64,000 bases of DNA from Deltaproteobacteria bacterium (lineage in GTDB: Bacteria; Desulfobacterota; Dissulfuribacteria; Dissulfuribacterales; QOAL01), in NCBI GenBank assembly GCA_015494395.1, contig WGBG01000180.1, positions 10,329-74,328 on the forward strand, read 5' to 3'. The translations under genes were made by a program, and so were the position numbers. Under the pieces are notes generated by a model. That model worked only from the letters and a program-made list of their open reading frames with translations. It ran no database searches and was not told the origin of the DNA. Shown here piece by piece: positions 13,613-55,332 of the stretch (position 1 is the stretch's first letter; every line of letters begins with the position of its first letter).

Positions 13613-13751
13613 CCTAGATTGAGCGATTGTCGGATATGCAGTAAATACGGCAATCCCGAAGGGTTTCAAAACTGGAAAGCTATAATTGACATAACTCCCT
13701 TTAATTTCATTGAAAAAACATTTTTTCAGATTTTGAAACGCTCAATCTAGG
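13613..13751 (+). mobile_element. family B MITE, short form (B1)
   Basis: Perfect 13-bp terminal inverted repeat CCTAGATTGAGCG / CGCTCAATCTAGG. Flanked by the 5-bp direct repeat AGAAA (13608..13612 and 13752..13756). Confidence 0.8.
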
Positions 13752-13782: not shown

Positions 13783-14667
13783 TCAATAACCCCTGTAATC
13801 ATAAGAAGGGCAGTATCGTGCCGGTACGCGGTTCAGTGCAATACCAAGAAGGTTTGTATGGCTTATCTCCTCCATTGCCTTGTCCAGTTCTTCCTCCTTG
13901 CTCTTGCAGCTTCTTACCACCATAAGGGCAGTATCTGCATAACGGGCAAGATAAAGACCGTCTGAAAAGAGATTAAGCGGCGGGCTGTCAAATATAACCA
14001 GCCGTTCAGGATAGCGGTTTTTTATGTCAGTGACAAAATCATGCATTGCCGGACTACCAAGGAGGTCCGCCGGGTAGTCTGAAGGGGTTCCGGCAGTAAG
14101 AATGGTGAGCCTTGGTATTCCGGGGTTTATAAGCAGCTCGTTTAGAGGTGTGCCCTTTGTGAGATGTTCAAACAATCCTGCCTCTGCCTCAATTCCCATA
14201 TATTTATGAATGGCAGGCTTGCGCATGTCTGCGTCAACCAGAAGGACTGTCCTGGATGTCTCCCTGGCAATACTTATGGCGAGGTTTATCGCAGTTATGG
14301 TCTTTCCCTCCTTGGGGCCAGGGCTGCATACCATAATGGATCTGGCATCATTTTCCTTCATGGCCGTCTCAATTTTCACCCTGAGCAGGTTGTACTGCTC
14401 TATAATTATTTCCGGACAATCTGTAGTGAGTATCCCGTGCTTTTCAAGCACCGCCTTGTCAGCCGGGGTTACCCTGGTCTGGGTGTACACAGGCTCTATG
14501 TGTCCCGGTCTTGCAGCACATGCTGTTTTGACCTTGGGTGTATCTTCAGCCTGTGTTTTCTGAGGCGCAGGTGTAACTGGTGTGGTTTCTTTAGTAGTTT
14601 CTGAAGCAGGGGAGTCCTCGCCGCGCGCCTGCTGTGCCATCTCCAGTGCCTTTTCTAGCTTGCTCAT
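13783..14667 (-). CDS. EPS/PEP-CTERM locus tyrosine autokinase (BY-kinase, CpsD/EpsG-like)
   Basis: Walker A (SPGPKEGKT), Walker A'-like VLLVDADMRKP, and a Tyr-rich C-terminal tail (YCPSYDYRGY). Confidence 0.8.
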   Translation of the reverse strand: MSKLEKALEMAQQARGEDSPASETTKETTPVTPAPQKTQAEDTPKVKTACAARPGHIEPVYTQTRVTPADKAVLEKHGILTTDCPEIIIEQYNLLRVKIETAMKENDARSIMVCSPGPKEGKTITAINLAISIARETSRTVLLVDADMRKPAIHKYMGIEAEAGLFEHLTKGTPLNELLINPGIPRLTILTAGTPSDYPADLLGSPAMHDFVTDIKNRYPERLVIFDSPPLNLFSDGLYLARYADTALMVVRSCKSKEEELDKAMEEISHTNLLGIALNRVPARYCPSYDYRGY

Positions 14668-14668
14668 T

Positions 14669-16300
14669 TTATTTTTTCCCTTTTACTTCGTCTGCATTCA
14701 ATATGGAAACCAGAGGTGACCGGCCAGTTATGCGTTTAATGTCTGCCGGTGTGCGAATGGTGGTGTCTGCCATTTCAACAATGGAGGCGATACCAATTCC
14801 TATGCCAATACCAAGCACCAAACCAATCAGAATAATCGCAATGCGGTTGGGTTTGACCGGTTTTTCAGGAAGCTGAGGAGGATCAATTACAGTGAATTTT
14901 TCACTTGCCTGGCGTTGTTCAAGTGTCTGCCCCTGCTTGGCCTCCATGAGTTTTGCAGTTATCTGCTTGTATTCTGCCTGCGCAGTCTCATAATCCCTGT
15001 TAAGTTCCCGGTATTCCCGCTCCACCTCAGGCATCTTTTCAAGCCGCTTTATGTATTCTTCCCATTTTTGGGTAAGGTCCTTCTTCCTTGCCTCAAGTCC
15101 TGCCAGTTCGATCTTGGCTGCCTTGATCTGTGTCTGAAGGTTGATGTAAGCCGGATTGTCCGGTTTGCCCACATAGGTTGAGCTTGAGGATGCCGAAGCA
15201 GGAAGAGATGCAATTTTTTTCTTAAGCTCGCTAATCTCCTGCTTGAGTTTTACAATGTCCGGATGTTTGTCTTTCAGGTCCGCGGATTTTTTCTTGAGGT
15301 CTTCCTCTTTGAGTTTCAGAAGGTCAATAAGCTCCTGCCTGTTCTGGGTATTTCCGACTTCCTTCTCAAGATTTGCAATTTCCTGCCTCAATTTGATCAG
15401 GTCAGGATGCCTGGGAGACAGGTTCGCCTCCATGCTTATCTCCTGGCTCCTCAGCATCTTTAGCTTTTGTACCGGATCGGTAATAATCTGGCCGGTAGGA
15501 CCCTGTACTGTGATGTCAGGAGACACTGTGGCAAGCTGTCCCTGAAGATAGACAAGGCGGTTCTTTGCCTGTCTGATCTGTGAGTCAATATCGTCAATCT
15601 GCTGCCGTAGCTGCCGTTCTGTCTGGAGGTTCAGCCCCATGAGTTCAGGCAGCTCAGTAATATGCTTTTGCTTGAATGCAGCAATTTTTGTCTCAAGCTC
15701 CTGTGTGCGTTTGCGGTAAACCTTTGCCTGGTCTTCAAGGAAGCTGGTGGCTGTCTGGGCAAGCTCTTCCCTCATCTTGAGGTTGTGTTCAAGGAAGAGA
15801 GAGGTAAGTCTGTTTGTTACCTGCATGACCTTCCTCGGGTCTGTGCCCTCAAAGGAGACTGTAAAGGCAACATTAACCGTAACTGCCCGACCACTTCTTC
15901 TGTCTGGTACTTCCGCACTGATCATCTCAACAGAGATGTCATCGCGCATCTTGTCAATAATTTCCTCTGTGGTGAGTTTTTCGCGTTCTTCCGGGTAGAG
16001 GTTAAAATCCTTGATAATTTTGAGAAGTACCTGTCTGCTAAGAATCTGTGCGCTGATTGCCTTGATGCGTTCTTCTGCAAAACCGGTAACAGTAGTACGA
16101 ACCAGGTCTTGGGGAACCTGCTGTGATTCAATGAGTATGGTGGATGATGAGCGGTAAACCGGCGGAAGGAGATAGGCTATGGCAACGGCTATGCCAACGC
16201 AGATGAAAAGCGGAAGCAGAATGTGCCATTTTCGCCTGTAAAGAAACTGTTTATAATCATCAAGAGTGGAAAAAGCTTCCTGGTTTTGTTCCTGTTTCAT
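14669..16300 (-). CDS. polysaccharide chain-length determinant protein (Wzz/PCP, PEP-CTERM locus subfamily)
   Basis: N- and C-terminal TM helices flank a long coiled-coil periplasmic region. The gene lies immediately upstream of the BY-kinase. Confidence 0.8.
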   Translation of the reverse strand: MKQEQNQEAFSTLDDYKQFLYRRKWHILLPLFICVGIAVAIAYLLPPVYRSSSTILIESQQVPQDLVRTTVTGFAEERIKAISAQILSRQVLLKIIKDFNLYPEEREKLTTEEIIDKMRDDISVEMISAEVPDRRSGRAVTVNVAFTVSFEGTDPRKVMQVTNRLTSLFLEHNLKMREELAQTATSFLEDQAKVYRKRTQELETKIAAFKQKHITELPELMGLNLQTERQLRQQIDDIDSQIRQAKNRLVYLQGQLATVSPDITVQGPTGQIITDPVQKLKMLRSQEISMEANLSPRHPDLIKLRQEIANLEKEVGNTQNRQELIDLLKLKEEDLKKKSADLKDKHPDIVKLKQEISELKKKIASLPASASSSSTYVGKPDNPAYINLQTQIKAAKIELAGLEARKKDLTQKWEEYIKRLEKMPEVEREYRELNRDYETAQAEYKQITAKLMEAKQGQTLEQRQASEKFTVIDPPQLPEKPVKPNRIAIILIGLVLGIGIGIGIASIVEMADTTIRTPADIKRITGRSPLVSILNADEVKGKK

Positions 16301-18353: not shown

Positions 18354-18577
18354 GTATCTATTCAGCGTGATAAATGGTCTTGTTTTGGAGTGACTATGAA
18401 GAATCTCGTAGTTTTTATTAGCGAAGCGTAGTCATAAAATCGCGTCTATACTGAGAGTGGAACCAGTGAGTTCCTCGATTTTGGCTTAAGCGAGCCCTGG
18501 AAAATAAGAAATTATTCACTTGAGTGGAAAAACAAGACCTCTTACCAACTTTCGTTATTTATATGCTGAACAATTAC
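18354..18577 (+). mobile_element. family A MITE, full length (A1)
   Basis: Ends are GTATCTATTCAGCG..GGTCTTGTTTT and AAAACAAGACC..GCTGAACAATTAC. Perfect 8-bp target duplication AGTAAATC (18346..18353 and 18578..18585). Confidence 0.85.
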
Positions 18578-27979: not shown

Positions 27980-28294
27980 TTACCCCTTTTGCAGTTGTGT
28001 CAGATACTCTTCCCATTCCATGGGAAGCAGATTTTTCTTCTTGTTGTTGCACTCCTTGCAGGCAGGGACCAGGTTTCCCCTGGTGCTCTTGCCGCCACGT
28101 GAAAGAGGAACCAGATGATCCATAGTTAGCATATCGCTACCCACCTGGCTATTGCAGTAATGGCAGACCCCTTTGGCGCATTTTTTTCTCCACCATGAGG
28201 TTTTCCTGAGCTGCCGCGCCCGCTGTTTTTCTCTTCTTATCTCTTCATCGTCAACAAAGGAGAAATTAAAAAATGTTTTTTGTGCCGTGGTCAT
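27980..28294 (-). CDS. small HNH endonuclease-domain protein
   Basis: 104 aa with CHYC..DHLVPLSRGG..NLVPACKECNNKK (HNH with two CxxC pairs). Confidence 0.8.
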   Translation of the reverse strand: MTTAQKTFFNFSFVDDEEIRREKQRARQLRKTSWWRKKCAKGVCHYCNSQVGSDMLTMDHLVPLSRGGKSTRGNLVPACKECNNKKKNLLPMEWEEYLTQLQKG

Positions 28295-28315: not shown

Positions 28316-29035
28316 TTATGGTTCCTCCCCGTCCAGACGAAACCTGTAGCCTACTCCTGAATGGGTGATGATCAGACGGGGGCTTGATGGGTTGTCTTCT
28401 ATCTTCTGGCGAAGCCTTCTTATGTGTACGTCAATTGCCCGGCTCCACGGGTAAACCTCCTTGTCTTTCCAGAGTCTGTTACACAACTCTTCACGTTTAA
28501 CTACCTTGTTACAGTTTTCTACAAGGGTCAGCAGCAGCTCGAACTCCTTACGGGTGAGATTCACATGCTCTCCCCTGGCAGTCACTGTCCTCTGTTCAGG
28601 ATAGATGGTTATGTCACCTGCCTTTATCACCTGTTCTGTACGGGTTGTCTTGTCCCTGCGCCTGATACACGCCTTTATGCGTGCTGCAAGTTCCAGGAAT
28701 TCAAAGGGCTTGGTCATGTAGTCGTCAGCCCCCAGGTCAAGCCCCCGTATCTTGTCAGCAAGGCTCTCCCGTGCACTGAGGATTATAATCGGGATGTCAG
28801 ACAGCTTCCTCAAATGCTGGCATATTATCAGGCCATCAATGTCTGGCAGGGTGAGATCAAGAATGACAAGGTCCGGCTTAAAACTATCAAAAGCCTCCAT
28901 AGCCTCCTTGCCGGTTGACACACCCTTTGCCTCATAACCGTCCAGTGCAAGCTGATCCACAAGGACCTTTTGAATGTCCTGATCGTCCTCAACCACAAGT
29001 ATTTTCATTCCTTCCCTAGGTTCTCCCTCAATCAT
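28316..29035 (-). CDS. OmpR-family response regulator
   Basis: Receiver domain (KILVVEDD..DLVILDLTLPD) plus a winged-helix output domain (GVGYRF). Start is ATG 29035 (GGGGGA 8 nt upstream) or ATG 29008. The 29134 extension is rejected. Confidence 0.9.
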   Translation of the reverse strand: MIEGEPREGMKILVVEDDQDIQKVLVDQLALDGYEAKGVSTGKEAMEAFDSFKPDLVILDLTLPDIDGLIICQHLRKLSDIPIIILSARESLADKIRGLDLGADDYMTKPFEFLELAARIKACIRRRDKTTRTEQVIKAGDITIYPEQRTVTARGEHVNLTRKEFELLLTLVENCNKVVKREELCNRLWKDKEVYPWSRAIDVHIRRLRQKIEDNPSSPRLIITHSGVGYRFRLDGEEP

Positions 29036-30620
29036 TGAGATTGTCCCCCTGTTTGAAAACTGGTACAGTGAAATAAAAAATCGCCCCTTTGTCACCAACG
29101 ATTTTAAGGCCTGCTTCGCCTCTGTGAAGTTCAACTATTCCCTTGACTATTGAGAGGCCAAGCCCTAGTCCTTCCGGCCCCTTATACCGTCTGGACTGAT
29201 AAAATTTGTCAAAAATCGCCTCCCGCTCTGCCTCTGGAACTCCTTGTCCCTGGTCTGTTACGGATATGAGCCAGAAGGATGCATCTTCTGGTGTGGAAGA
29301 ATTGTCACCATGAATGTCTGTACAGGGCTCAAGCCGCACATTTATTGAAGAGTGCTCAGGAGAAAATTTTATTGCATTTGAAAGCAGGTTTGACATTACC
29401 TGTTCCATTCTTGCAGGGTCAATCATAGCCGGACAGTGATACTCAGGAACCTGGTAGTTTATTTCTATTTTTTTCTCCCAGGCCAGGGGCATGGCCATGA
29501 GGATGGTGTTTTCAATAAGTTCAGCTAGATCTATGGGCCTTAAGTCAAATTCCATTGAACCGCTGTCAAGCCTTGTACAGTCAAGCACGTCCTGAACCAT
29601 ACCTGCAAGTTTGGTGCAGTTTCGTTCAAGTATTTCTAGGTAAGGGTTGTCTTTGCAGAATTCAGTGTTTTTAAGGAGACTCAGGGCCCCTTTCATGGCT
29701 GTTATGGGGGTCTTGAGGTCATGGGTTATGTTGGTAAAAAAATCAGCCTTGTACTGCTCGGTTCGTTTAAGCTCATCGTACGCCTGTTTCATGCTTGAAA
29801 CAGCCTTTTCCACTTCTTCCTGTAAAACTGCCTGCTGTCTTGCAAGTTCCCGCACCATGGAGTTAAAGTTTTTTCCCACGGCCTTCCATTCTACTGAGCC
29901 CTGAAGATCAAGCCGCACATCAAGGTCCCCCTGCTGAACTCTGCTGGCTGCGGCATCAAGCTTCCCAAGTGGTTTGAGCACGAACCGGTTTAAGAGTATC
30001 CAGAGGATAACCATAAGTAGCCCGAATGCGCCTGTCAGGTAGAGGGCGGCATAGAGGCTTTTTTGTTTAAGGGTACTGAAAAAACGCTCTGCGTCATGAA
30101 GGCTTACAGTTATGCAGCCTATGATTCCTGTTTTTTTCTTTTCAGCGTGGCAGGATGTGCAACCTGCATCAAATACAAGCGGGCCGGCATATCTGAATAC
30201 AGGCCTGCCATCTGCTTCGGTAACATCCCAGAGTTCCCGGACACCCTTGTTTTTCATAAGGCTGATGGCCTTTTGTTCAAATGGATCAGGTGCATGATCC
30301 GGGTCAACATTGCCATCCAGTGCCAGTTTTATGGAAAATGGTGCGTGTTTTTTCTGGCCCAGGTCTGCAAGTGCCTTGGTAAAGCCTGAGGGGGTCTTGC
30401 GCTGGAATTGATTGTCCTTACGAACATACACCCCCTTCCACTGGGAGATTAACTGCCGGGTCAGCACGATGTAGTGATAAATCCCCCTGGCCTCAAGCTT
30501 CATCTGTTCCATCACCGCCCTCTTTTCATGATGGTTTTGCCATGCCATGAATATTCCTGCAAAGATCAGGTTTAGTAAGAGCAGGATTAAGAAAAGTTGT
30601 CTGTTAAGGCTTGAGGGCAT
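29028..30620 (-). CDS. sensor histidine kinase with periplasmic CXXCH-containing (DUF3365/Tll0287-like) domain and HAMP
   Basis: Two TM helices bracket a ~160-aa periplasmic domain containing CTSCH (30147..30161). These are followed by a HAMP domain, the H-box FFTNITHDLKTP, and the HATPase N/G boxes. Confidence 0.85.
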   Translation of the reverse strand: MPSSLNRQLFLILLLLNLIFAGIFMAWQNHHEKRAVMEQMKLEARGIYHYIVLTRQLISQWKGVYVRKDNQFQRKTPSGFTKALADLGQKKHAPFSIKLALDGNVDPDHAPDPFEQKAISLMKNKGVRELWDVTEADGRPVFRYAGPLVFDAGCTSCHAEKKKTGIIGCITVSLHDAERFFSTLKQKSLYAALYLTGAFGLLMVILWILLNRFVLKPLGKLDAAASRVQQGDLDVRLDLQGSVEWKAVGKNFNSMVRELARQQAVLQEEVEKAVSSMKQAYDELKRTEQYKADFFTNITHDLKTPITAMKGALSLLKNTEFCKDNPYLEILERNCTKLAGMVQDVLDCTRLDSGSMEFDLRPIDLAELIENTILMAMPLAWEKKIEINYQVPEYHCPAMIDPARMEQVMSNLLSNAIKFSPEHSSINVRLEPCTDIHGDNSSTPEDASFWLISVTDQGQGVPEAEREAIFDKFYQSRRYKGPEGLGLGLSIVKGIVELHRGEAGLKIVGDKGAIFYFTVPVFKQGDNLND

Positions 30621-30700: not shown

Positions 30701-31050
30701 GTGGAAATAGCTCAAAGCTGAAAGCTCAAGGCTCAAAGTAAAAGAAGCCTATTTGCTTCCAGCTTCCGCTTTGGGTTAACTTTCATGTATCTATTCAGCG
30801 TGATAATTGGTCTTGTTTTGGAGTGACTTTGAAGAATTTCGTAGTTTTTCTTGGAGAAGCGCAGCCAGAAAATCGCGTCTGTCTGAGCGAGGCACGAGCG
30901 AGTTTCGCGATTTTGGCGTAGCGAGCCTTAGAAAAACAAGGAATTGTTCTCCGGAACGGAAAAACAAGACCAATTATCAACCTTATAATATCAATACGCT
31001 GAACAGTTACACTTTCATATCATGGGATGACAAACCCCATGTCATGAAAA
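30701..31050 (+). repeat. family C palindromic composite element (C1), interrupted by family A copy A2
   Basis: 30701..30786 matches the left ~90 bp of the intact copy at 49084..49205. 31011..31050 matches its right hairpin (..gatgacaaaccccatgtcatgaaa). Confidence 0.7.
30787..31010 (+). mobile_element. family A MITE, full length (A2)
   Basis: Canonical ends. Perfect 8-bp duplication ACTTTCAT (30779..30786 and 31011..31018), which is sequence belonging to family C. Confidence 0.9.
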
Positions 31051-31099
31051 TTTAGTATGAATTTGTGTAAGAAAACATTTTTAGAGTGTAAAAAACAAC

Positions 31100-31822
31100 A
31101 TGGCAGTGTTAAAGGCAGATGGCTTGGAAAAATCATACCGTGGCAGGCAGGTCGTAAAGGGGGTGAAGATTAAGATAAAAACCCGAGAGGTTGCAGGGCT
31201 CCTGGGCCCCAATGGAGCAGGCAAGACCACGGTATTTTATATGCTTGCCGGGATAATAAGGGCAGATGCAGGCAGTGTATCACTGAACGGAAAAGACATA
31301 ACAGCCCTGCCTCTTTCAGCCCGGGTTAAACATGGCCTGACCTACCTTCCCCAGGAGAGGTCTGTTTTTCAGGGACTCAGTGTGAAGAAGAATCTGTCTG
31401 CAGTCCTTGAGATGCTTGATATAAGCAAGGCTGAGATAGAAAGGAGAACTGAAAAGTATCTTGCCGAGTTTGATTTGGAACACGTGGAATCCTCTCTAGC
31501 GAGAGAGCTTTCAGGAGGTGAGGCAAGGCGGCTTGAGATTGCACGTGCCATTGCAGTTGAGCCTGATTTTTTGCTCATGGATGAGCCCTTTGCTGGGGTG
31601 GATCCAATGGCAGTCAGTATGATTCAGGACATAATCAGGAGGCTTAAAGGCCTTGGTATGGGGATTTTAATATCTGATCACAACGTAAAGGAAACACTCA
31701 AGGTCTGTGATCACGCGTTTATTATGAATGAAGGAGAAGTGCTGGTTTCAGGGGCTCCGGATGAGCTAGCAAAGAGTCCCGAGGCAAGGGCAGTTTATCT
31801 GGGGGAACGGTTCAGGCTGTAA
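31100..31822 (+). CDS. lptB: LPS export ABC transporter ATP-binding protein
   Basis: Walker A (GPNGAGKTT), signature LSGGEARRLEIARA, Walker B (FLLMDEPFAGVDP), and a length (240 aa) typical of LptB. Confidence 0.9.
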   Translation: MAVLKADGLEKSYRGRQVVKGVKIKIKTREVAGLLGPNGAGKTTVFYMLAGIIRADAGSVSLNGKDITALPLSARVKHGLTYLPQERSVFQGLSVKKNLSAVLEMLDISKAEIERRTEKYLAEFDLEHVESSLARELSGGEARRLEIARAIAVEPDFLLMDEPFAGVDPMAVSMIQDIIRRLKGLGMGILISDHNVKETLKVCDHAFIMNEGEVLVSGAPDELAKSPEARAVYLGERFRL

Positions 31823-31829
31823 AAAACAG

Positions 31830-31900
31830 GTATCTATGCACCGGGGCGGAAAAACAAGACCATTTACCAACCTTATAACACCCATACGCTGAACGGCTGC
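31830..31900 (+). mobile_element. family A MITE, internally deleted short form (A3)
   Basis: GTATCTA..ggcggAAAAACAAGACCATTTACCAACCTTATAA..ACGCTGAACGGCTGC. The flanks AAAAACAG / AAAAATAT match at 6 of 8. Confidence 0.6.
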
Positions 31901-31911
31901 AAAAATATACG

Positions 31912-33630
31912 TTATCGGGAAATCGGCTCAAGTACACCGTTATTCAGGATAAATGCCATGTCTGCTGCATCTATCATTCTGTCATGGTGTGATATGGCAA
32001 ATATGGTGAGGTCTCCGGCAAGGTTTTTCAAGGTCTCACATATCTCCTTTTCACTTGCGGGATCAAGGGCGCTTGTAGCCTCATCCAGAATTAGTATTTG
32101 TGGCCTGTGAATAAGCGCCCTGGCAATGGTAATACGCTGCCTCTGGCCACCTGAAAGCCTGCTTCCCCTTTCTCCTGTAACCGTATGGATGCCATCAGGA
32201 AGCCTTGAGACAAATTCCCATGCTCCTGCTCTCTTTAATGCATATTCTACATCGGCTTCAGTAAAGCTCTTGTCTCCAAGTGTTATGTTTACCATTATGC
32301 TGTCATGGAGCAGCATGGTTTCCTGCGCCACATAGCCGATCATCTTACGCCATTTTTTGATATCAAATTCGCTAAGTGAGGTGTGGTCAATCAGTATGTC
32401 ACCGCTTGATGGCACCATAAGCCCGCAGATCAGATCAGCCAGAGTCGTTTTGCCAACACCTGATGGCCCTGCCAGTGTGATAAACCTGCCCTTGGGAAAT
32501 GTTACACTGATGTTATTAAGAATGGATTTGCTGTCGTATGAAAAGCTTACATTGTGCAGACGAATTGCCTGCGTAAAAAACGGAAGTTTGGTTCCTTTCC
32601 ACTGCTCATACCATTTTTGAGCCTCCTGTATCCTGCTTTGCATGGACCAGTAGGCACTTTCGGCAATTACCATGGATTGATGTTGCCGCTGTGCCCTCTG
32701 AAGGGTCTTTAGAATCTTGTTAAGCATGTACACCATGACCAGGACGCTTGAAATAGAAAGATTGAAGGTTACCAGGGCAATGTACAGACCTGCTGAGAAA
32801 AATATGGTCATAAGTGGTTCCTGCATTGCCCTCAGTGCCTCCCGGCTGAATACCTGCATCCTTAACGCATGGTTTAAATTAAGTGTTTCCTGTTCAAGCA
32901 TTGTCTGGGTGGTCTGTTCCCTTGCCATTGCCTTCAGGGGCTTTATGGACTGAAGGGTGTCAGTCATTAGTGAAATCAGAGATTTAAGCTTGTCTGTCTG
33001 GTTTTTTCCTGCCTGTTTGGCCTTTATGACAAGCTGTTTCAGCAGGTAAAGAATTAATGATCCTACTACCAGTGCAAGGAGTGTGATACGCCAGGTCACC
33101 ATCATGGCAACTGATATATAGACAATGCAGTTTAAGAGCAGTGCAATTATCCTCATGCCAAAGAGGTAGGCGCTTGCAGAGCGTTGTGCCTCGGTTGCAA
33201 ATGAGTTTGTGAATGCACCGGCAGACTGATGTACAAAATATTCCCATCGGCTTGCAAATATGGCGCGTATCAGGTCAAGCCTCAGGTCTGTTGCAACCCT
33301 TGCAACCATGTATCCAACCTGTCTGTTGGCAATCAGAACCAGGCTGACTTTGATAATAATGCTCATTACAAAAAGGATGAGCAGAAGGCCAACTGTTGGG
33401 TGAATATGAAGGAACGCGAAAAGATTGCTTACTGCAATTTCCAGTGAGGAAGGGGAGTGGTTGGAGCCTGGCTGCTGCATGGCTGATCCGGAACTGTCAA
33501 AGGAAAGCGTGAGTAGCGGAAGGAGCATTGACATCCCAAAACCCTCGGCAATGCCGGCAAAGAGCATGGCAAAGAGGGTTACTACGCTTTGGGACGGATA
33601 GCGTTTCAGAAATGTGAGGACGAGATTCAT
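31912..33630 (-). CDS. ABC transporter, fused permease/ATPase (MsbA/lipid exporter-like)
   Basis: Six-TM N-terminal half, then Walker A (GPSGVGKTT), LSGGQRQR and ILILDEATSALD. Confidence 0.85.
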   Translation of the reverse strand: MNLVLTFLKRYPSQSVVTLFAMLFAGIAEGFGMSMLLPLLTLSFDSSGSAMQQPGSNHSPSSLEIAVSNLFAFLHIHPTVGLLLILFVMSIIIKVSLVLIANRQVGYMVARVATDLRLDLIRAIFASRWEYFVHQSAGAFTNSFATEAQRSASAYLFGMRIIALLLNCIVYISVAMMVTWRITLLALVVGSLILYLLKQLVIKAKQAGKNQTDKLKSLISLMTDTLQSIKPLKAMAREQTTQTMLEQETLNLNHALRMQVFSREALRAMQEPLMTIFFSAGLYIALVTFNLSISSVLVMVYMLNKILKTLQRAQRQHQSMVIAESAYWSMQSRIQEAQKWYEQWKGTKLPFFTQAIRLHNVSFSYDSKSILNNISVTFPKGRFITLAGPSGVGKTTLADLICGLMVPSSGDILIDHTSLSEFDIKKWRKMIGYVAQETMLLHDSIMVNITLGDKSFTEADVEYALKRAGAWEFVSRLPDGIHTVTGERGSRLSGGQRQRITIARALIHRPQILILDEATSALDPASEKEICETLKNLAGDLTIFAISHHDRMIDAADMAFILNNGVLEPISR

Positions 33631-33727
33631 TGTCCGGATCTGGCAAGGGGCTGCAACAATTTATATAGCCAGCTTTAAGAGAGGGTAATGAATGGAAATA
33701 ACCTTTATGCTGGCATTTAGAGCGGTG

Positions 33728-34906
33728 TTATTCAGAGGTAAGGGCTTCAAATGCATCACCAATGGTGGATACCTGCTCAGGTGTGTGAGATGCGCTCATA
33801 CTGCAGCGCAAAAATGCACTTCCATCTGGTGTGGCAGGTGGCAGTACCATGTTTACATAAACACCTTTAGCAAGCAGTCCCTTCCACACTCTCAAGGCTT
33901 CATGCGGATCAGTGAATCTTACAGGAATAATGGGAGTGGGTTCAGGGCCAAGGTTCAGCTTGAGTGAGGACAGCCTGTCATAGAGTGCATTTGTGTTTTG
34001 CCATAGCCTTGTTCTAAGCTCAGGACGTGTGGCGATTATCTCAAGTGCCTTTCTTGCAGATGCTATGTTGGAAGGGGAGGGGGAGGCAGTAAAAATATAT
34101 GGCCTGCTTGCGTAGCGCAGAATTTCAAGCTGCTGGTGGTTGCTTGAACAAAAGCCCCCGGTTGCACCAAGGCTCTTGCTGAACGTACCGGTGATAAAGT
34201 CAACCTTGTCTGAAACCCCTGCCTCTTCGGCAAGTCCCCTGCCATTTTCTCCCAATACTCCCAGTGAGTGTGCCTCATCTACCAGGAGATAAGCCCCGTA
34301 TTTTTCTTTCAGTTCAACTATTTCTCTTATGCATGCCCGATCCCCCAGCATGCTGTAAAGCCCTTCTATGATAATCAGAATGTTTGTTTTGCGTTTCTGC
34401 AGACGGGAGAGCCTTTTTTCAAGGTCTTCCATATTGTTGTGCTTGAAACGGAACATCTCAGCCCCGCCCATGCGGCAGCCGTCATATATGCTGGCATGAC
34501 AGTCAGCGTCAAGCAGAGCGATGTCGCCGGGGCCAGCCAGGGATGAGAGCACAGCCAGGTTTGCACCATATCCTGTGGTGAAAACGATCGTGTTTGAGCA
34601 GCCAAGAAAATTTGAAAGGGCCTCTTCAAGCTGGACATGACCTGAAAAAGTCCCGTTTGCCATGCGGGAACCAGTGGTTCCTGTACCGTTTTGTCTGGTT
34701 GCCTGGCACGCTGCCTCTATGCATTCAGGGTCCATTGAAAGGCCCAGGTAGTTGTTGGTTCCGGCCAGAATTACCTTTTTGCCATTTATAACAGCCTCGG
34801 TGCTGGACAGGATTTCATCCATTACCACCTGAAAGAAGGCGCCAAATTCCTGTTCAAGTTTCTGGCCTGCCTGGACAAGTTTGTCAAATTTGTCAAAGAT
34901 GTTCAT
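33728..34906 (-). CDS. spt: serine palmitoyltransferase-like alpha-oxoamine synthase
   Basis: Blocks closely resemble bacterial Spt as I recall it: GSRMANGTF, DADCHASIYDGC, EGLYSMLGD, LVDEAHSLG, GTFSKSLGATGGF (PLP Lys), RPYIFTAS, YVNMVLPPATP, FLRCSMSASHT. Confidence 0.8.
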   Translation of the reverse strand: MNIFDKFDKLVQAGQKLEQEFGAFFQVVMDEILSSTEAVINGKKVILAGTNNYLGLSMDPECIEAACQATRQNGTGTTGSRMANGTFSGHVQLEEALSNFLGCSNTIVFTTGYGANLAVLSSLAGPGDIALLDADCHASIYDGCRMGGAEMFRFKHNNMEDLEKRLSRLQKRKTNILIIIEGLYSMLGDRACIREIVELKEKYGAYLLVDEAHSLGVLGENGRGLAEEAGVSDKVDFITGTFSKSLGATGGFCSSNHQQLEILRYASRPYIFTASPSPSNIASARKALEIIATRPELRTRLWQNTNALYDRLSSLKLNLGPEPTPIIPVRFTDPHEALRVWKGLLAKGVYVNMVLPPATPDGSAFLRCSMSASHTPEQVSTIGDAFEALTSE

Positions 34907-34919
34907 TGAGATGGATATG

Positions 34920-35159
34920 TCAGATAAGTTTTTTTATTTGCGTAGCAAGATCTTCCACTGTGCGAACTTCAGCAAGTACATTTATGGGGATGGAGATGTC
35001 AAAGGTATCCTCAATCTGGGCAAGGATCTCCATGGATTTCAAGGAATCAATTGAGAGATCTGTAGCCAAATCTGTTTCAGGGGTAATCTCCGTATCTTCA
35101 GGCACCATTGGTTTGAGTATTTGGATGATTTTTCCAAGAACTTCCCTTTCCTCTCCCAT
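34920..35159 (-). CDS. acyl carrier protein
   Basis: 79 aa and acidic, with the phosphopantetheine attachment motif LSIDSLKSMEI. Confidence 0.8.
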   Translation of the reverse strand: MGEEREVLGKIIQILKPMVPEDTEITPETDLATDLSIDSLKSMEILAQIEDTFDISIPINVLAEVRTVEDLATQIKKLI

Positions 35160-35211
35160 GAGACCAACACCTTTCTGTAGAATTTGAAACTCTGTTCATT
35201 CCAGGTTTATT

Positions 35212-36150
35212 TCACGCTGCTAAAAGTTCCCTCAGCCCCTTCTTCAAACTTATAACAGGAGACCAATGATAATCCTGGGAAATAGGGCCGTTCTCAGCGG
35301 TCCAGTCAGGATGTAAAAGCTCATTTGCCTTGCCTAGAGTCAGCATTGGAGCATTTCCTGTTATTCTTGAAACACAAATATTAACCAATCCAAGAAACTT
35401 TACAATAGTTGCAGGTATTTTAATCCTGTTTATTTTTTTGCCTGTGATTATTGAGACTGTATCAATAATATCATGCCATGTATATCCCCCCTCCATTCCA
35501 TCGTGGATCTCATAAATCCCTGCATCCCTTGCAATCCCTGTTTTTATGACGGTTTTGATGGCATTTGCAAGGTCATGGACATTTATCAATGACAGTCTCT
35601 GGGTTGTGCTGCCAATTACCGGACAAATGCCCATGGCCATGACCTTGAAAAGCGGCAAAAGTTCCCTGTCACCAGGTCCGTACACAGCAGTTGGACGGAG
35701 TATAACCAGCTTTTCAGGGTAATATTTTTTAATTAAAGCAATTTCTCCAGCTCTTTTGCTTGCGGCATAATGAGACAGGTGAGGTTCCCGTGCTGCAAGT
35801 GATGAGATATGTATTAATATGGGAGGCTTTTGGCACCTGGAGCAGATTTCTGCAATGGTTGATGTGCCATGCACGTTGACTGCCTCAAAATCTTTTAAGG
35901 CACGCCCTCTAACTGTGCCGGCACAGTGGACAACAGCATCAGCACCGGCTACCAGTTTTTCAATGCTATCGATGTCATTGAGATCGCCAGTTATCCAGGT
36001 GAGATTTTTTCTTTGAGGAAGGACCCTGTTTTTTTTCTTTCTTGTCAGGGCATTGATGTGCCAGCCCGATTCCCAAAGCACTTTTAGCAAAGCAGAACCA
36101 ATGAAGCCTGTTGCACCTGTGACAGCTACACGGGGAAAATGGTCATTCAT
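35212..36150 (-). CDS. NAD(P)-dependent epimerase/dehydratase-family reductase (CerR-like candidate)
   Basis: Extended-SDR fold with VAVTGATGFIGSAL. It lies between the FAAL and acp genes, as in bacterial ceramide clusters. Confidence 0.75.
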   Translation of the reverse strand: MNDHFPRVAVTGATGFIGSALLKVLWESGWHINALTRKKKNRVLPQRKNLTWITGDLNDIDSIEKLVAGADAVVHCAGTVRGRALKDFEAVNVHGTSTIAEICSRCQKPPILIHISSLAAREPHLSHYAASKRAGEIALIKKYYPEKLVILRPTAVYGPGDRELLPLFKVMAMGICPVIGSTTQRLSLINVHDLANAIKTVIKTGIARDAGIYEIHDGMEGGYTWHDIIDTVSIITGKKINRIKIPATIVKFLGLVNICVSRITGNAPMLTLGKANELLHPDWTAENGPISQDYHWSPVISLKKGLRELLAA

Positions 36151-36187
36151 TGGGGATGGGGCTTAATCTGGTACGGGCACAAAGGTA

Positions 36188-37924
36188 TCAGGCAGCTGCT
36201 TTCTCACCGTTCATTGCAAGATAGACCTTGCGACTTCCGCTGCGGCTGGGTTTCCCTGACGTGGTTCGTACCAGTGTATTCTTGGGGACAATTTCAACAA
36301 TGCATTCAATTCCTAACTCCTGGCGCACCAGACGTTTTAGCTCTTCTACCCGGCGCGCCTTTTCAGCAACATCGGTTATCTTGCTTTGTACCAGCAGGAC
36401 CGCCTCCTCAAGGCCGTTACTGTCAGTGCATGAGAAGGCACAGGCGTCTCCAGCCCGTATTCCGTCAATGCTTTCAGCAAGGTATTCGATGTCCTGTGGC
36501 CATATATTCCTGCCGTTTATTATGATAAGGTCTTTTGAACGGCCTGTAATAACTATCTCTCCATCTGACCAGTAGGCCATGTCACCGGTATTAAGCCACC
36601 CGTTTTTTGAGAGCACTTCTGCTGTTGCCTCAGCATCTGCAAAATATCCGGTCATTATGCTTGGTCCCCTGAGAAAAAGGGTGCCGCATTTACCTTCTGA
36701 AAGAATTTTTCCTTCTGCGTCTCTGATTTCAACCTCAAAGGTTGGCAGGGGCCTTCCACATCTGACAAAGGTATTTGCCCTTACTGCCTCATGTTGTTCA
36801 TCATTTTCGTTCAGGTAAACAACATCATTGGTCTCTGCAAGTCGTTCTGCATCTATTGTGTCCGTGGTTATTCCGGAATTTACAGGGGCAAAGGTAACGG
36901 CCAGGGAACATTCAGCCATGCCATAACACGGTATGAATGCCTTTGGACTGAAACCGGCAGGCTTCAGACATTTTGCAAATTTGTCCAGAGACTGTTTTCT
37001 TATCATCTCCGCTCCTATGCCGGCAATGCGCCAGGAACTCAGATCAAGACCTTCTATTTCATGGGGCTTGAGGCGCATGGCTGAAAGCTCGTATGAAAAT
37101 GGCGGTCCAAATGATATGGATGCCCTGTTGTCTGATATTAGCTTAAGCCACAGGCGAGGACGCATTACAAAATCTATTGTGCTGAAAAAATCCACAGAGA
37201 GCTGGCTTGCCATGCTTGCCAGCAGGAGTCCAACAAGGCCCATATCGTGGTAAAAGGGAAGCCATGATACTGCTCTGTCACCCTCCCTGACCTTGATTCC
37301 TGGCCCGGCTATTGCAGACAAGTTGTTCATCACTGCTGCCTGTGTAATCATCACTCCCTTTGGGAAGCGTGTGCTGCCGGATGTAAACTGCAGATATGCC
37401 AGTTCGTGCGGTTCCAGCGGGTGAAGTTTTTGGGTTGAGGTCGGGAGAGCATGAAAATCTTCTGGCGGACCTGTCATCTTCATGCCCAGGCCATCGGATG
37501 CCTTTAGCAGAAAGTCAAGGAAGTCGGGTGTGGATACTGCAATATCAGCCCCGCAAATGGTAAGAAGTCTTCTTAATTGGCCAATGTATGCCTCTGATCC
37601 GTTCAGATGAGTTCCTAATGGAAGAGGTACTGGAATAAGTCCTGCATACTGGCAGGCAAAGAAAAAACGCACGAACTCAGGGTGGGTTGTAGCAACCAGT
37701 GCGACCCGGGAGTTTCTTTCAAGGTCAAGGGAGAGCAGACGGGATGCCAGCTCCATTGCCTCAGCTTTGAGCCTGCTGTAGGGCAGCACATCATACAGTT
37801 CACCCCTGCGTGAGTAAAAATTAAAGCCCGTTTCTCCTGTTGCTGCATAATCCAGTGCAAGGGCAAGGGTATCGAAAGTTCCGGTTTTAAGGGGGACTGT
37901 ATTGAGTGTAGGGGTAGGATCCAT
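36188..37924 (-). CDS. fatty acyl-AMP ligase / acyl-ACP synthetase-like adenylating enzyme
   Basis: AMP-binding motifs (YLQFTSGSTRFPKGV, TGD..Y). FAAL-like architecture. Confidence 0.85.
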   Translation of the reverse strand: MDPTPTLNTVPLKTGTFDTLALALDYAATGETGFNFYSRRGELYDVLPYSRLKAEAMELASRLLSLDLERNSRVALVATTHPEFVRFFFACQYAGLIPVPLPLGTHLNGSEAYIGQLRRLLTICGADIAVSTPDFLDFLLKASDGLGMKMTGPPEDFHALPTSTQKLHPLEPHELAYLQFTSGSTRFPKGVMITQAAVMNNLSAIAGPGIKVREGDRAVSWLPFYHDMGLVGLLLASMASQLSVDFFSTIDFVMRPRLWLKLISDNRASISFGPPFSYELSAMRLKPHEIEGLDLSSWRIAGIGAEMIRKQSLDKFAKCLKPAGFSPKAFIPCYGMAECSLAVTFAPVNSGITTDTIDAERLAETNDVVYLNENDEQHEAVRANTFVRCGRPLPTFEVEIRDAEGKILSEGKCGTLFLRGPSIMTGYFADAEATAEVLSKNGWLNTGDMAYWSDGEIVITGRSKDLIIINGRNIWPQDIEYLAESIDGIRAGDACAFSCTDSNGLEEAVLLVQSKITDVAEKARRVEELKRLVRQELGIECIVEIVPKNTLVRTTSGKPSRSGSRKVYLAMNGEKAAA

Positions 37925-39001: not shown

Positions 39002-39220
39002 GTAACTGTTCAGCGTACTTAAAAGGTTGGTAAATGCCCTTGTTTTCCGTTCCAGAGAACAATTTCTTGTTTTTCTAAGGCTTGCTTAAGCCAAAATCGC
39101 GAAACTCGCTCGTGCCTCCCTCAGACATACGCGATTTTATGGCTGCGCTTCGCCAAGAAAAACTACGAAATTGTTCAAAGTCACTCCAAAATAAGACCAT
39201 TTACCACGCAGAATAGATAC
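39002..39220 (-). mobile_element. family A MITE, full length (A4)
   Basis: Reverse orientation: GTAACTGTTCAGCG..GGTAAATGCCCTTGTTTT...AAAATAAGACCATTTACCACGCAGAATAGATAC. The flanking 8-mers match at only 5 of 8. Confidence 0.8.
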
Positions 39221-41200: not shown

Positions 41201-41249
41201 GGTTGTTTTAAGGATTCCTGCTTGTTGCTCAATTCGGGAAAAGTTTAAA

Positions 41250-41457
41250 CCTGGATTGAGCGATTGCCGGATTTGCTACAGATCCGCGAAAGGGGAATTC
41301 CCATAATAGTTGGCTATATGGGAATTCCCCTGACAAAGGAGATGCAGTAAATACGGCAATCCCGAAGGGTTTCAAAATTGGGAAGCTATTATTGACATAA
41401 CTCTTTTTAATATCGGTGAAAAAACAATTTTCCATATTTTGAAACGCTCAATCTAGG
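41250..41457 (+). mobile_element. family B MITE, long variant (B3)
   Basis: TIR is CCTGGATTGAGCG / CGCTCAATCTAGG. 5-bp duplication TTAAA (41245..41249 and 41458..41462). It carries ~70 extra bp, including the hairpin GGGGAATTCCCA-N15-TGGGAATTCCCC (41292..41330). Confidence 0.8.
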
Positions 41458-41468
41458 TTAAAAATGCC

Positions 41469-41547
41469 TTAACTGTTAAGCGTACTAATAATAAAGGTTG
41501 GTAAATGGTCTTGTTTTTACGCTCCGGTTACCACGCTGAATAGATAC
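41469..41547 (-). mobile_element. family A MITE, short hairpin form (A5)
   Basis: ttAACTGTTAAGCG..GGTAAATGGTCTTGTTTTT..CCACGCTGAATAGATAC. The 8-bp flanks AAAATGCC / AAAATACC match at 7 of 8. Confidence 0.7.
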
Positions 41548-41734: not shown

Positions 41735-42502
41735 TTGAAGGCAATAATATTAAGCGCAGGGCAGGGGAAACGCCTTTTGCCCATGACTGCTGACATGCCC
41801 AAGTGTATGCTTGATGTTGGCAGTGGTACTATTCTTGAGTGGCAGATCAATACGCTTCTTGGTATGGGCGTTAATGAAATAGTAATCGTCACCGGTTACG
41901 GGGCATCCAAGGTGGACAGGCTGATATCAGAAACCTATGCTGATAATGGAGTAAGGACTCTTTATAATCCTCATTATGCCACTTCTGACAACCTTGTGAG
42001 CTGCTGGTGGGCAAGCAGTGAGATGGATAAGGATTTCTTGCTGCTTAATGGAGACACGCTGTTTGAGCCTGCTGTGGCCAGTACCCTTATGAACTGTCCG
42101 CCTTCTTCAATAACCATGGCAATAAATGTCAAGGATAACTATGACAGCGATGACATGAAGGTTGTGGTTGATAAGGGGCGGCTTTTACATGTTGGCAAGC
42201 AGCTGCCGGTTGAAAGTGTTGACGGGGAATCAATTGGTTTTATCCGTTTTCTGGGAGAGGGGCCAGATATTTTCAAAAAGGCACTTGCCGAAGCTGTTGA
42301 GAACCCTTCGAGTAAAGGAAGATGGTACCTGTCTGTAATTGACAAGATTGCAGGAGAAATGCCAATAAGTACATGTCCAATCACCGGTTATTCATGGTGT
42401 GAAGTGGATTATCCTGAGGACCTTGATAATGCACGCAGGATGATTGCATCGCTTTCTGTTGCCAAAAAAACTGAGGGCAAGGGCATTTGCCAACCTTATT
42501 AA
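41735..42502 (+). CDS. NTP-transferase domain protein (LicC/IPCT-like cytidylyltransferase candidate)
   Basis: TTG start with GGAG 8 nt upstream. N-terminus is (M)KAIILSAGQGKRLLPMT. The last codons and the stop lie in a family A end fragment. Confidence 0.7.
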   Translation: MKAIILSAGQGKRLLPMTADMPKCMLDVGSGTILEWQINTLLGMGVNEIVIVTGYGASKVDRLISETYADNGVRTLYNPHYATSDNLVSCWWASSEMDKDFLLLNGDTLFEPAVASTLMNCPPSSITMAINVKDNYDSDDMKVVVDKGRLLHVGKQLPVESVDGESIGFIRFLGEGPDIFKKALAEAVENPSSKGRWYLSVIDKIAGEMPISTCPITGYSWCEVDYPEDLDNARRMIASLSVAKKTEGKGICQPY

Positions 42503-42524
42503 GGTGAATGCGCTTAACAGTTAC
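42478..42524 (+). repeat. solo right-end fragment of family A (A11)
   Basis: caagggcatttgccaaccttattaaggtgaatgcgcttaacagttac aligns to the right ends of A2, A3 and A5 (caagaccatttaccaacctt..acgct(g/t)aacagtta). Confidence 0.6.
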
Positions 42525-42681
42525 ATAATTTCTTCTTTATCAATGTTAGTACTTTTCCACGGTAATATTACCCTATCCTGACTTTAGACTTCGCCGGCTC
42601 AGCCTGATATCCGCTAAGCAAAAGACCGGCATCAGTCCGGCATTTTTTCTGAGTATTAGCCTGGCTGCCCATTATAGCGTT

Positions 42682-49083: not shown

Positions 49084-49205
49084 GTGAAAATAGCTCAAGG
49101 CTCAAAGTTGAAAGTCAAAGAAACCATGTTGGTTTTCAGCTTCCGACTTTGAGCTTTCAGATAACTTTCATGTCAGGGGGTGACAAACCCCATGTCATGA
49201 AAGTT
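49084..49205 (+). repeat. family C palindromic composite element, intact reference copy (C2)
   Basis: It contains two hairpin modules (gctcaaggctcaaagttgaaag..cttccgactttgagctttcag and tttcatgtcagggggtgacaaaccccatgtcatgaaa). It fills the gap between two convergent genes. Confidence 0.7.
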
Positions 49206-49215
49206 AAGGCAGGCA

Positions 49216-51432: not shown

Positions 51433-51571
51433 CCTGAATTGAGCGTTTCAAAAGTTTGAAGAAATGATTTTATACGATATTAAAAGGACTTAAATTTATC
51501 ATACTCTTAAACTTTTGAAACCCTTCGGGATTGCCGGATCTGCAGCAAATCCGACAATCGCTAAATCCAGG
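51433..51571 (-). mobile_element. family B MITE, short form (B4)
   Basis: Reverse orientation with ends CCTGAATTGAGCG / CGCTAAATCCAGG. 5-bp duplication ACTGT (51428..51432 and 51572..51576). Confidence 0.8.
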
Positions 51572-52452: not shown

Positions 52453-52797
52453 ATGTCTGACTGTCTGTTTTGCAAGATGGTTTCAGGTGAGATCAAGCCT
52501 GATGTTGTTTATGAAGATGATGATGTCCTGGCATTTCGTGACATAAATCCCCAGGGGCCAACCCATGTGCTGGTTATTCCAAAGGAGCATATTGCCACCA
52601 TTAACGACCTTCAGGAGCATCATGCCGAACTTATGGGAAAGATCTATCTCACTGCTGCCAAGGTCGCAGCACAGGAGGGTATTGCAGAAAAAGGCTACCG
52701 CACGGTTATGAACTGCAACAGGGATGGAGGCCAGGAGGTGTATCATATCCACCTTCACGTAATTGGCGGCAGGGGCATGACCTGGCCTCCAGGCTAA
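52453..52797 (+). CDS. HIT-family (histidine triad) nucleotide-binding protein
   Basis: 114 aa with the HIHLHVIGG triad. GGAGG RBS. Confidence 0.9.
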   Translation: MSDCLFCKMVSGEIKPDVVYEDDDVLAFRDINPQGPTHVLVIPKEHIATINDLQEHHAELMGKIYLTAAKVAAQEGIAEKGYRTVMNCNRDGGQEVYHIHLHVIGGRGMTWPPG

Positions 52798-53022
52798 ACT
52801 TTCGTGGTAGGGGCGCTGTCACTCCCCTGATATGAAAGTTAGCTCTAAGCTCAAAGTCGGAAGCTGAAAGCAGACAGGGTTTTTTTTGTAACTGTTCAGC
52901 GCATTTATTCAACGAGGTTGGTAAATGGTCTTGTTTTTCCGTTCCCAGGACCATTTACCACGCTATATAGATACGTTTTTTTACTTTGAGCCTTGAGCTT
53001 TCAGCTTTGAGCTATTTTAGGA
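52797..53022 (-). repeat. family C palindromic composite element (C3), interrupted by family A short copy A6
   Basis: 52797..52887 and 52975..53022 together align to the reverse complement of C2. The element begins at the HIT stop codon. Confidence 0.7.
52888..52974 (-). mobile_element. family A MITE, short hairpin form (A6)
   Basis: GTAACTGTTCAGCG..GGTAAATGGTCTTGTTTTTCCGTTCCCAGGACCATTTACCACGCTATATAGATAC. It is flanked by G+T-run repeats (gtttttttt / gttttttt), consistent with an 8-bp duplication. Confidence 0.75.
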
Positions 53023-53900: not shown

Positions 53901-55331
53901 ATGAACTATGAAGCTGTTATAGGTCTTGAGGTGCATGTCCAGCTCAAGACCAGTAGCAAGATATTCTGTTCCTGTGTAAACAAATTCGGGTCTTCACCCA
54001 ATACCCAGACCTGTCCTGTATGTCTTGGCATGCCTGGTGTGCTTCCGGTGCTTAACCGCAGGGTGGTTGAGTATGCCCTGAGGATGGGCATGGCCACAAA
54101 CTGCAAGATTCCAAAATACAGTCAGCTTGCAAGAAAGCACTACTTCTATCCTGATCTTCCAAAGGGCTATCAGATTTCACAGTATGAACTTCCCCTGGTT
54201 GAACACGGCTGGGTTGATATAGATGTTGAGGGCAAGACCAGGCGTATTGGGATTACGAGGATTCATATTGAAGATGATGCAGGCAAACTTGTTCATGATG
54301 AGTCACGGCCTGTAAGTTACGTTGATCTTAACAGGACAGGGACCCCTCTTATAGAGATAGTAAGTGAGCCGGACATAAGAAGCCCTGAGGAGGCTGCTGC
54401 CTATGTAAGGAAGATACGGCAGCTTGTGCGTTATCTGGGAATCAGTGACGGCAACATGGAGGAGGGAAGCCTCAGGTGTGATGCAAATATCTCCCTTCGT
54501 CCAGAGGGGCAGAAAGAGTTTGGCACCAAGTCCGAGTTAAAGAACATGAACTCCTTCAGGAACGTGCAGAAGGCACTTGAATATGAAATCAGGCGTCAGA
54601 CTGCGCTGCTGCTTGACGGGCAGGAGATAGTGCAGGAGACCAGACTCTGGGATGCCGGTAAAGGTGTTACCCACTCCATGAGAGGCAAGGAGGAGGCACA
54701 CGACTACCGCTACTTCCCGGATCCTGATCTTGTCCCCATTGAGATAAGTGACCAGTGGATGGAGGAGATAAGGGCAGATTTGCCCGAGCTTCCTGATGAG
54801 AAGCGCAGGCGCTTTATGGAACAGTACGGGCTTCCTGAATACGATGCCTCGGTTCTGACGGTTTCAAGGGAGACAGGGGATTATTTTGAAGAGGCGGTAA
54901 GGCTCTTTGATAATCCAAAAAGCGTGTCAAACTGGATAATGGTGGAGCTCATGAAGCTACTTAAACAGACCGATGTCTCCATTGAACAGTGCAATGTTAC
55001 CCCGGCATATCTGGCTGAGATACTAGCCCTTGTGGACAAGGGGACAATCAGTGCGCAGATGGGCAAGGAGGTGTTGCAGGACTGTTTCGGGACCGGCAAG
55101 TCCCCTGCGTCAATAGTTGAGGAAAAGGGGCTTTCCCAGGTCAGTGACGAGTCAGAGCTTGAGGCAGTTGTTGCAAAGGTGATGGAGGCAAATCCCAAGG
55201 AAGTTGAGCTGTACCGTGGTGGCAAGAAAAAGGTTCTTAGTTTCCTCATGGGACAGGTTATGAGGGAGACGAGGGGCAAGGCAAATCCCAAAAAGGTGAA
55301 TGAGATTTTCAGAAAAATGCTTGAGGGATAA
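53901..55331 (+). CDS. gatB: Asp-tRNA(Asn)/Glu-tRNA(Gln) amidotransferase subunit B
   Basis: [15 protein letters not shown].., [15 protein letters not shown], and a full-length 476 aa. Confidence 0.95.
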
Positions 55332-55332
55332 T

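Follow-up and report, generated by a model that had tools for sequence, protein, structure and literature searches.

A stretch of DNA 64,000 nucleotides long, called the window below, was analysed around positions 30701 to 31050, where a full-length copy of one short repeat, family A, is nested inside a copy of another, the palindromic repeat C, in the spacer before an lptB-like gene. A is a miniature inverted-repeat transposable element (MITE), that is, a non-autonomous DNA transposon, and C is an older, already decayed palindromic repeat of REP/BIME-like type. The whole account, in which A, a MITE with ends of the IS66 family, ISBst12 group, transposed into a C element that was already in place and generated an 8-bp duplication, is very probably correct. 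An ISBst12-type IS66 transposase, supplied in trans, would act on A; a staggered 8-bp cut would be made at ACTTTCAT, within hairpin 2 of C, on its 5' arm; the 224-bp A would be joined at the cut, and gap repair would duplicate the 8-mer.

The two junctions can be read directly. ACTTTCAT occurs at 30779-30786 and again at 31011-31018, flush with both ends of the 224-bp A (30787-31010). At the left junction, ...gggttaACTTTCAT (30779-30786) is followed by the start of A, GTATCTATTCAGCG; at the right junction, the end of A, CGCTGAACAGTTAC, is followed by ACTTTCAT (31011-31018) and then by atcatgggatgacaaaccccatgtcatgaaa, which runs to 31049. The intact C copy of the window reads ...gataACTTTCATgtcagggggtgacaaaccccatgtcatgaaa; here ACTTTCAT is present once, at 49164-49171, with gtcagggggtgacaaaccccatgtcatgaaa after it. 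The repeat search found another exact 8-mer repeat, TATATGAA, in the same ~550 bp. An 8-mer repeated anywhere in 550 bp is unremarkable, and the weight of the observation therefore comes from the position of the pair, abutting both termini of A; the odds of such an arrangement are about 1 in 65,000 for one fixed position.

For excision in silico, four C copies went into a profile of the repeat, and the focal copy was left out to avoid circularity. Against the native sequence, the profile matched in two pieces, one covering model positions 6-96 at 30707-30788 (53.7 bits) and the other covering 87-132 at 31011-31055 (26.4 bits), and the overlap of the two pieces in the model corresponds to the duplicated bases. 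When 30787-31018 was excised, these were replaced by a single match spanning model positions 6-132, with a score of 84.1 bits; when A was excised but both 8-mers were kept, the score was 78.6 bits. Pairwise and multiple alignments agree: once 30787-31018 is taken out, the remaining sequence aligns collinearly to the other two C copies of the window, 49084-49205 and 52794-53018.

An earlier note on this DNA had proposed that A is nested inside C, and had named excision as the way to check it; the claim stands, as the excised sequence is once more one contiguous C, colinear with the other copies. Its interpretation of the 8-mer on both sides as an 8-bp target-site duplication is likewise upheld, both by the position next to A and by the recurrence of such duplications across the family (34 of 47 bounded copies; see below). 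For the relative age that it proposed, with C older than the focal A insertion, the split C, the duplication and the excision result all agree. The sequence that it quoted for the intact copy is correct; the coordinates that it gave, 49161-49200, are off by about 2 bases, which is immaterial. The features of the locus and the other copies in the window are collected in Table 1.

Table 1. Coordinates of the nested insertion, its neighbouring genes and further A and C copies in the window
Feature	Position	Strand	Evidence or remark
C left piece	30704..30786	+	hairpin 1 and 5' arm of hairpin 2 ending in ACTTTCAT; profile match 30707-30788
Target-site duplication copy 1, ACTTTCAT	30779..30786	.	sequence read, repeat search, flank comparison
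Family A MITE, full length, 224 bp	30787..31010	+	94.2% to consensus of 38 full-length copies
A left terminal inverted repeat, GTATCTATTCAGCG	30787..30800	+	13/14 against left end of pHTA426 IS
A right terminal inverted repeat, GTAACTGTTCAGCG read inwards	30997..31010	-	12/14 against right end of pHTA426 IS
Target-site duplication copy 2, ACTTTCAT	31011..31018	.	sequence read, repeat search, flank comparison
C right piece (hairpin 2)	31011..31055	+	profile model 87-132; 88.9% to 49164-49208
Weak candidate sigma-70-like motif AAAACA-17-TATAAT, A right arm, towards lptB-like gene	30961..30989	+	relaxed scan
LptB-like ABC ATPase gene	31100..31822	+	TIGR04406, 324.5 bits, cut-off 240
Miniature A, 71 bp	31830..31900	+	starts 8 bp past lptB-like stop; flanks AAAAACAG / AAAAATAT match 6/8
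Sensor histidine-kinase gene, divergent	29028..30620	-	Pfam domains
Response-regulator gene, after histidine kinase	28316-29134		Pfam domains
Intact reference C	49084..49205	+	exactly fills gap between convergent genes
Second C copy	52794..53018	-	87-bp miniature A (52888-52974) in hairpin 1 loop
A full or near-full copies	18354-18577, 39002-39220, 55329-55537		BLAST with 224-bp block
A full or near-full copies	57597-57823, 58869-59077, 61959-62156		BLAST with 224-bp block
A short derivatives or fragments	31830-31900, 41469-41547, 42478-42525, 52888-52974		BLAST with 224-bp block

The inserted element, A, has imperfect terminal inverted repeats of 14 bp. In the focal copy, inverted-repeat arms of 16 nt, 88% complementary, are found at 30786-30801 and 30996-31011, and conservation of these arms extends over 38 copies; the repeat search also reported, for the focal copy, a subterminal inverted repeat of 48 nt. 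The window contains 11 A-derived segments (full, partial or miniature), and an 18-mer from the subterminal arm of A has 17 matches in it, against 0.02 expected. In a scan of one genome per species, the same 18-mer was found in at least 55 contigs or loci of MAG JALWJV01 (‘Deltaproteobacteria bacterium M17_metabat1_scaf2bin.112’), which shares about 96% DNA identity with the window where the two overlap (locus L063) and so belongs to the same or a sister species. Outside JALWJV01, the matches listed include scattered single occurrences of the 18-mer, none of which resembles A as a whole, and viral contigs scanned with the A arm gave no match. Among 38 full-length copies, the mean column identity is 92%; the nearest relative of the focal copy is at L017:5298-5521, with 96%.

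Two other identities were considered for A and rejected. The copies differ by a length-variable run of adenines and by indels of 1-2 bp, so that every reading frame is broken, which rules out A as coding sequence. As single-stranded DNA, A folds back over its whole length (MFE -44.5 kcal/mol, z = -5.9), and the consensus fold is one long foldback of 64 pairs. A selected structured RNA was rejected, since compensatory double changes are seen in only 3 of the 64 pairs; the pairing thus reflects conservation of the inverted-repeat sequence and not a selected RNA structure. Rfam had no match at the locus even under permissive thresholds, nor any across the window under gathering thresholds, and no tRNA genes were found in the window.

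The behaviour of the family at its insertion sites was followed in 47 A elements bounded by terminal repeats, by comparing the 8 bases on either side. These flanking 8-mers are identical (8/8) in 26 of the 47 and match at 7/8 in 8 more, giving a total of 34; for control 8-mers, placed 20 bp farther from the element, the best agreement is 5/8. The flanks of the remaining 13 copies match at 6 positions or fewer; age, rearrangement or wrongly set boundaries may account for these. Derivatives shortened to 69-87 bp by internal deletion have kept both the termini and the duplication. A family-wide 8-bp duplication together with retained termini is the signature of a DDE transposase that makes 8-bp staggered cuts.

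Some smaller features of the family can be recorded here. In the subfamily of the focal copy, which also includes L017:5298-5521, GATAATTGG / CCAATTATC replace GGTAAATGG / CCATTTACC in the two subterminal arms (30801-30809 and 30971-30979), a matched change, and partly matched arm changes are found in a few other copies (L049:2971 and L062:5347). Matched changes of this kind could reflect symmetry for transposase binding or correction of one arm by the other. Copies of A also meet the ends of genes: the stop codon of a nucleotidyl-transferase-like ORF (41735-42502) falls inside a solo A right end (42478-42525), and a 5'-truncated A (55329-55537) begins at the stop codon of gatB (53901-55331).

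The ends of A point to its parentage. ISDge4 of Deinococcus geothermalis (IS66 family, ISBst12 group) has the published ends GTGACTACTCAGCA / GTAACTGCTCAGCA and the 8-bp direct repeat CCTCGATG (PMC12898284), and the ends of A match those of ISDge4 at 10/14 positions on the left and 12/14 on the right. An IS at 14107-15741 of Geobacillus kaustophilus plasmid pHTA426 (NC_006509) was read directly. Its ends are GTATCTATTCAGCC at 14107 and GTAACTATTCAGCC (reverse strand) at 15741, with the duplication GACGAGTT on both sides, and its gene (14182-15639) encodes a single protein of 485 aa with the domains DDE_Tnp_IS66 (PF03050, 218 bits) and zf-IS66. The ends of A, GTATCTATTCAGCG / GTAACTGTTCAGCG, agree with those of the pHTA426 IS in 13/14 bases on the left and 12/14 on the right; both elements have T in one end and A in the other at base 4, with the same asymmetry, and the characteristic IS66 single-ORF termini, GTA[A/T]CT..T[T/C]CAGC, are present in A. 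The similarity to the pHTA426 IS stops after the terminal 13-14 bp, and the subterminal sequence is unlike. A thereby resembles the single-ORF IS66 elements ISDge4 and the pHTA426 IS in its ends (GTATCTATTCAGCc / GTAACTaTTCAGCc are nearly those of A) and in the 8-bp duplication that both of them make, and differs from them in its length of 224 bp and in having no transposase gene.

Names for the pHTA426 element are in conflict. The NCBI label of its protein is ‘IS66-like element ISGka4 family’, whereas Suzuki et al. assign the element that they call ISGka4 to the ISLre2 family and give it a duplication of 9 bp (PMC8024623). The element was therefore assigned by its Pfam domains and by the ends read from the sequence, not by either name.

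An autonomous partner for A was sought in several ways. No IS66 transposase was matched by tblastn, either in the window or in about 0.5 Mb of DNA from this species (65 loci), though IS copies are commonly lost from short-read MAGs; and no terminal-repeat pair longer than 438 bp was found in any analysed locus. Ten large ORFs of the window, some of them adjoining A copies, are all housekeeping genes, with no transposase among them. As no such partner was found, the driver of A is read from its ends alone, which suggest mobilisation by an IS66-type transposase.

The host element, C, is of a different kind. The intact reference copy folds as RNA into two hairpins (-54.3 kcal/mol, z = -7.2); hairpin 1 has arms of AGCTSAA 7-mers and a variable loop, and hairpin 2 is ACTTTCATGTCAGGGG...CCCCATGTCATGAAAGT. 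In the analysed DNA, the right half of C is present in seven copies and the left arm is found by itself several times, all of them between ORFs. Neither terminal inverted repeats nor duplications were seen at the extremities of these seven copies and in their flanks, a small sample with fuzzy boundaries. With double hairpins and no terminal repeats or duplications seen, C thus looks more like a REP/BIME mosaic than like a DDE MITE. The hairpin 1 loop sometimes carries AAGGACGC-like 8-mers in inverted arms (L048:2392-2535, L035:2030-2075 and L040), and left arms occur alone, as arrays of AGCTSAA 7-mers without the rest of C, at L010, L040 and L045; C looks like a mosaic of smaller modules.

The focal C copy is decayed: its hairpin 1 has lost 8 bp from the right arm, and its folds are weaker. 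Its left piece folds at -26.6 kcal/mol (z = -2.6), and its left arm is 97.6% identical to 52976-53017. The focal hairpin 2 folds at -13.8 kcal/mol, compared with -25.7 for the intact copy (49161-49208). Because A landed in the 5' arm of hairpin 2 and the duplication regenerates this arm, hairpin 2 can still be folded downstream of A.

A chromosome lacking the insertion was looked for in other assemblies. The insertion is common to all five assemblies that reach the site, and the same junction is found in L001 and L002 (99.7-100% identity) and in L150 and L151. Three to five of the seven public contigs (L003, L004 and L152; L150 and L151) end inside A or C at this point. The reconstructed empty-site 24-mer had no match in JGI metagenome contigs, and relatives of LptB in metagenome contigs are at most 55% identical, with no close relative among them. 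Exact-protein look-ups with LptB and the histidine kinase returned seven contigs, each of which carries the insertion or ends inside A or C. No empty allele having been found, the state before insertion is known only from the paralogous C copies.

Nesting is seen at other sites as well. The 87-bp A derivative within C at 52888-52974 has flanking 8-mers that match at 7/8; the A copy at L017:5298-5521 lies within another A (L017:5254-5560), and its duplication, AAATGGTC, is part of A's own subterminal arm; and a 209-bp MITE with a 5-bp duplication is nested in A at L032:5758-5966. This third family, with ends CCTAGATTGAGCG...CGCTCAATCTAGG, is present in the window at 41249-41458 (minus strand) and in partial form at 13632-13751 and 51438-51571, and its 5-bp duplications, copy by copy, are TACGA, TTGAA, AGTTA, TTTAA and TTTAC. 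A and at least two other small repeat families appear to crowd the short intergenic spaces, and repeats would therefore often land in one another.

Such nesting could also be programmed, if the transposase of A prefers C for its hairpins or its sequence. IS1397 and ISKpn1 insert into REP/BIME palindromes, of the three C copies in the window, two have A-derived sequence inserted in them, and in the sister MAG, A abuts or sits inside C left arms at L036, L054 and L069; moreover, when 33 A target sites were reconstructed, about 9 proved to be within another repeat. The MAG loci, however, were fetched for containing A, so that the co-occurrence of A and C in them is biased, and a rough estimate for the window, with ~10 A copies in ~8 kb of intergenic DNA, gives roughly 0.5 expected hits in C against the 2 seen. 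The points of insertion in C also differ, being in the 5' arm of hairpin 2 at the focal site, in the loop of hairpin 1 at 52888 and at the outer edge of the left arm at L036, and the fixed position in a palindromic target that is typical of IS1397 and ISKpn1 is not found for A. The A target sites, and with them the duplicated 8-mers, are AT-rich and have a weak A-N8-T frame but no other shared sequence, and the empty sites, as reconstructed, have on average no more structure than shuffled sequence (mean z = -0.46), the two in C being the only ones to stand out. Targeted insertion is thus quite improbable. As A enters C at varying positions and its targets mostly lack structure, the nesting points to survival in dispensable DNA; we infer tolerance of insertions in junk DNA, not targeting.

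Transposition itself could be doubted if recombination between dispersed A and C copies had joined unrelated C fragments around A, the 8-mer being then merely part of C. The genome is full of near-identical repeats that are able to recombine, and the left arm of the focal C is closest to 52976-53017 while its right hairpin is closest to 49164-49208. Against this, both C pieces keep the order and orientation of an intact copy, their overlap is precisely the 8 bases duplicated family-wide, ACTTTCAT occurs once at that position in intact C copies, and the flanking gene order is the same in all assemblies. A rearrangement of this kind is hardly credible, and insertion of A into a pre-existing C is the explanation that we adopt.

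The composite of A and C lies in a divergent intergenic region of 479 bp, from the histidine-kinase start at 30620 to the lptB-like ATG at 31100. It occupies 350 of these bases; the unique sequence that is left amounts to 80 bp at one end of the region and 49 bp before the ATG. The remark of the earlier note, that the promoter of lptB would be expected here, is one of position only. The lptB-like gene is monocistronic and divergent from the pair of histidine-kinase and response-regulator genes. The label lptB used in the note needs qualification: the protein passes the LptB equivalog model, but the gene is a stand-alone paralogue and not a member of a canonical lptA-lptB pair. Such a pair is present in the sister MAG at L020:1080-2361 (LptA, TIGR03002, 87.5 bits; LptB, TIGR04406, 355 bits), and the window protein has only 54% identity with this LptB; as the canonical LptB is this distant and also scores higher, the gene in the window is taken to be the paralogue. 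A full A copy is found at L020:828-1051, between pstA and lptA and directly upstream of lptA. With A upstream and a miniature A downstream, the lptB-like gene of the window is bracketed by A-derived sequence in the same orientation.

Beyond the miniature A, the region 31912-37924 beside the lptB-like gene encodes an MsbA/HepA-like ABC exporter, a serine palmitoyltransferase (NF047599, 590 bits), an ACP, an epimerase/dehydratase-type reductase and an AMP-binding enzyme, a layout that looks like a cluster for synthesis and export of a sphingolipid-type lipid. On the other side, an HNH-endonuclease gene (104 aa, Pfam HNH) lies at 27980-28294, between the response-regulator gene and glmS.

Given this position, the composite might be a domesticated cassette, maintained because A supplies a promoter or a processing/attenuation signal for the lptB paralogue. 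Only 49 bp of unique DNA separate the composite from the ATG, and a strict promoter scan of the 479-bp spacer gave no sigma-70-like site on the strand of the gene. The best match of the relaxed scan, AAAACA-17-TATAAT, points at the gene, and its perfect -10 hexamer is specific to the focal subfamily, TATAAT being found only in the focal copy and in L017:5298-5521. The duplication regenerates hairpin 2 between this candidate site and the ATG, the insertion is fixed across the five assemblies that extend to it, and in the sister MAG another A copy stands directly upstream of lptA. The motif, however, is weak, agreeing with the -35 hexamer at 3/6 positions, and chance should produce matches of this quality; shuffled sequence yields 1.6 strict sites per region. 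The other copy with TATAAT is nested in another A, copies of A adjoin many unrelated genes, and the assemblies are all near-identical (99-100%), so that a shared insertion says little about selection. A role as a maintained cassette is therefore unlikely, and it is equally doubtful that the right arm of A with its TATAAT would be the promoter of the stand-alone LptB paralogue. If it were, a hyper-abundant IS66-type MITE would have rewired the expression of an envelope-lipid export ATPase, and the same might hold for further A copies, for example the one that precedes lptA in the sister MAG. The insertion of A into C is probably neutral, or nearly so, for the lptB-like gene.

Bacterial MITEs, the subject of PMC6382973 and PMC5896051 among other papers, are in general small, non-coding elements bounded by terminal inverted repeats, with a duplication of fixed length and often an intergenic location. 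A is like the bacterial MITEs Correia/NEMIS of Neisseria, RUP of Streptococcus pneumoniae, ERIC/IRU, MITEAba12 of Acinetobacter and the MITEs of Coxiella, with which it shares foldback, high copy number and an intergenic location, often abutting or overlapping the ends of genes. Correia elements make a TA duplication, RUP is derived from IS630 and MITEAba12 makes a 9-bp duplication; A differs from all three in its parental IS family. With 11 segments in 64 kb, it reaches a density near the top of the bacterial range. C, for its part, is like gamma-proteobacterial REP/BIME in being a multi-copy intergenic mosaic of hairpins with a mobile element inserted in one of them, and one copy lies between convergent genes, like a terminator-type REP. 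It is unlike REP/BIME in that its sequence is unrelated and in that its hairpin 1 has arms of 7-mer repeats and a variable loop holding further repeats. The insertion of A in C is also unlike that of IS1397 and ISKpn1 in REP/BIME, in having no fixed position.

The finding is real but ordinary: a nested MITE insertion in a repeat-packed genome. The locus itself is a textbook nested insertion, and its main use is as a clean relative-age marker. Among the papers searched, none mentions ISBst12 together with MITE, and a family with IS66/ISBst12-type ends, very dense in an uncultured deltaproteobacterial lineage, is apparently undescribed. The new points are modest: a dense MITE family, a BIME-like double-hairpin repeat, and a neighbouring gene corrected to an LptB paralogue. 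For this lineage, the A and C repeats are a systematic cause of breaks in metagenome assemblies, and since they both break assemblies and abut or overlap the ends of genes, knowledge of their boundaries helps the assembly and annotation of its MAGs.
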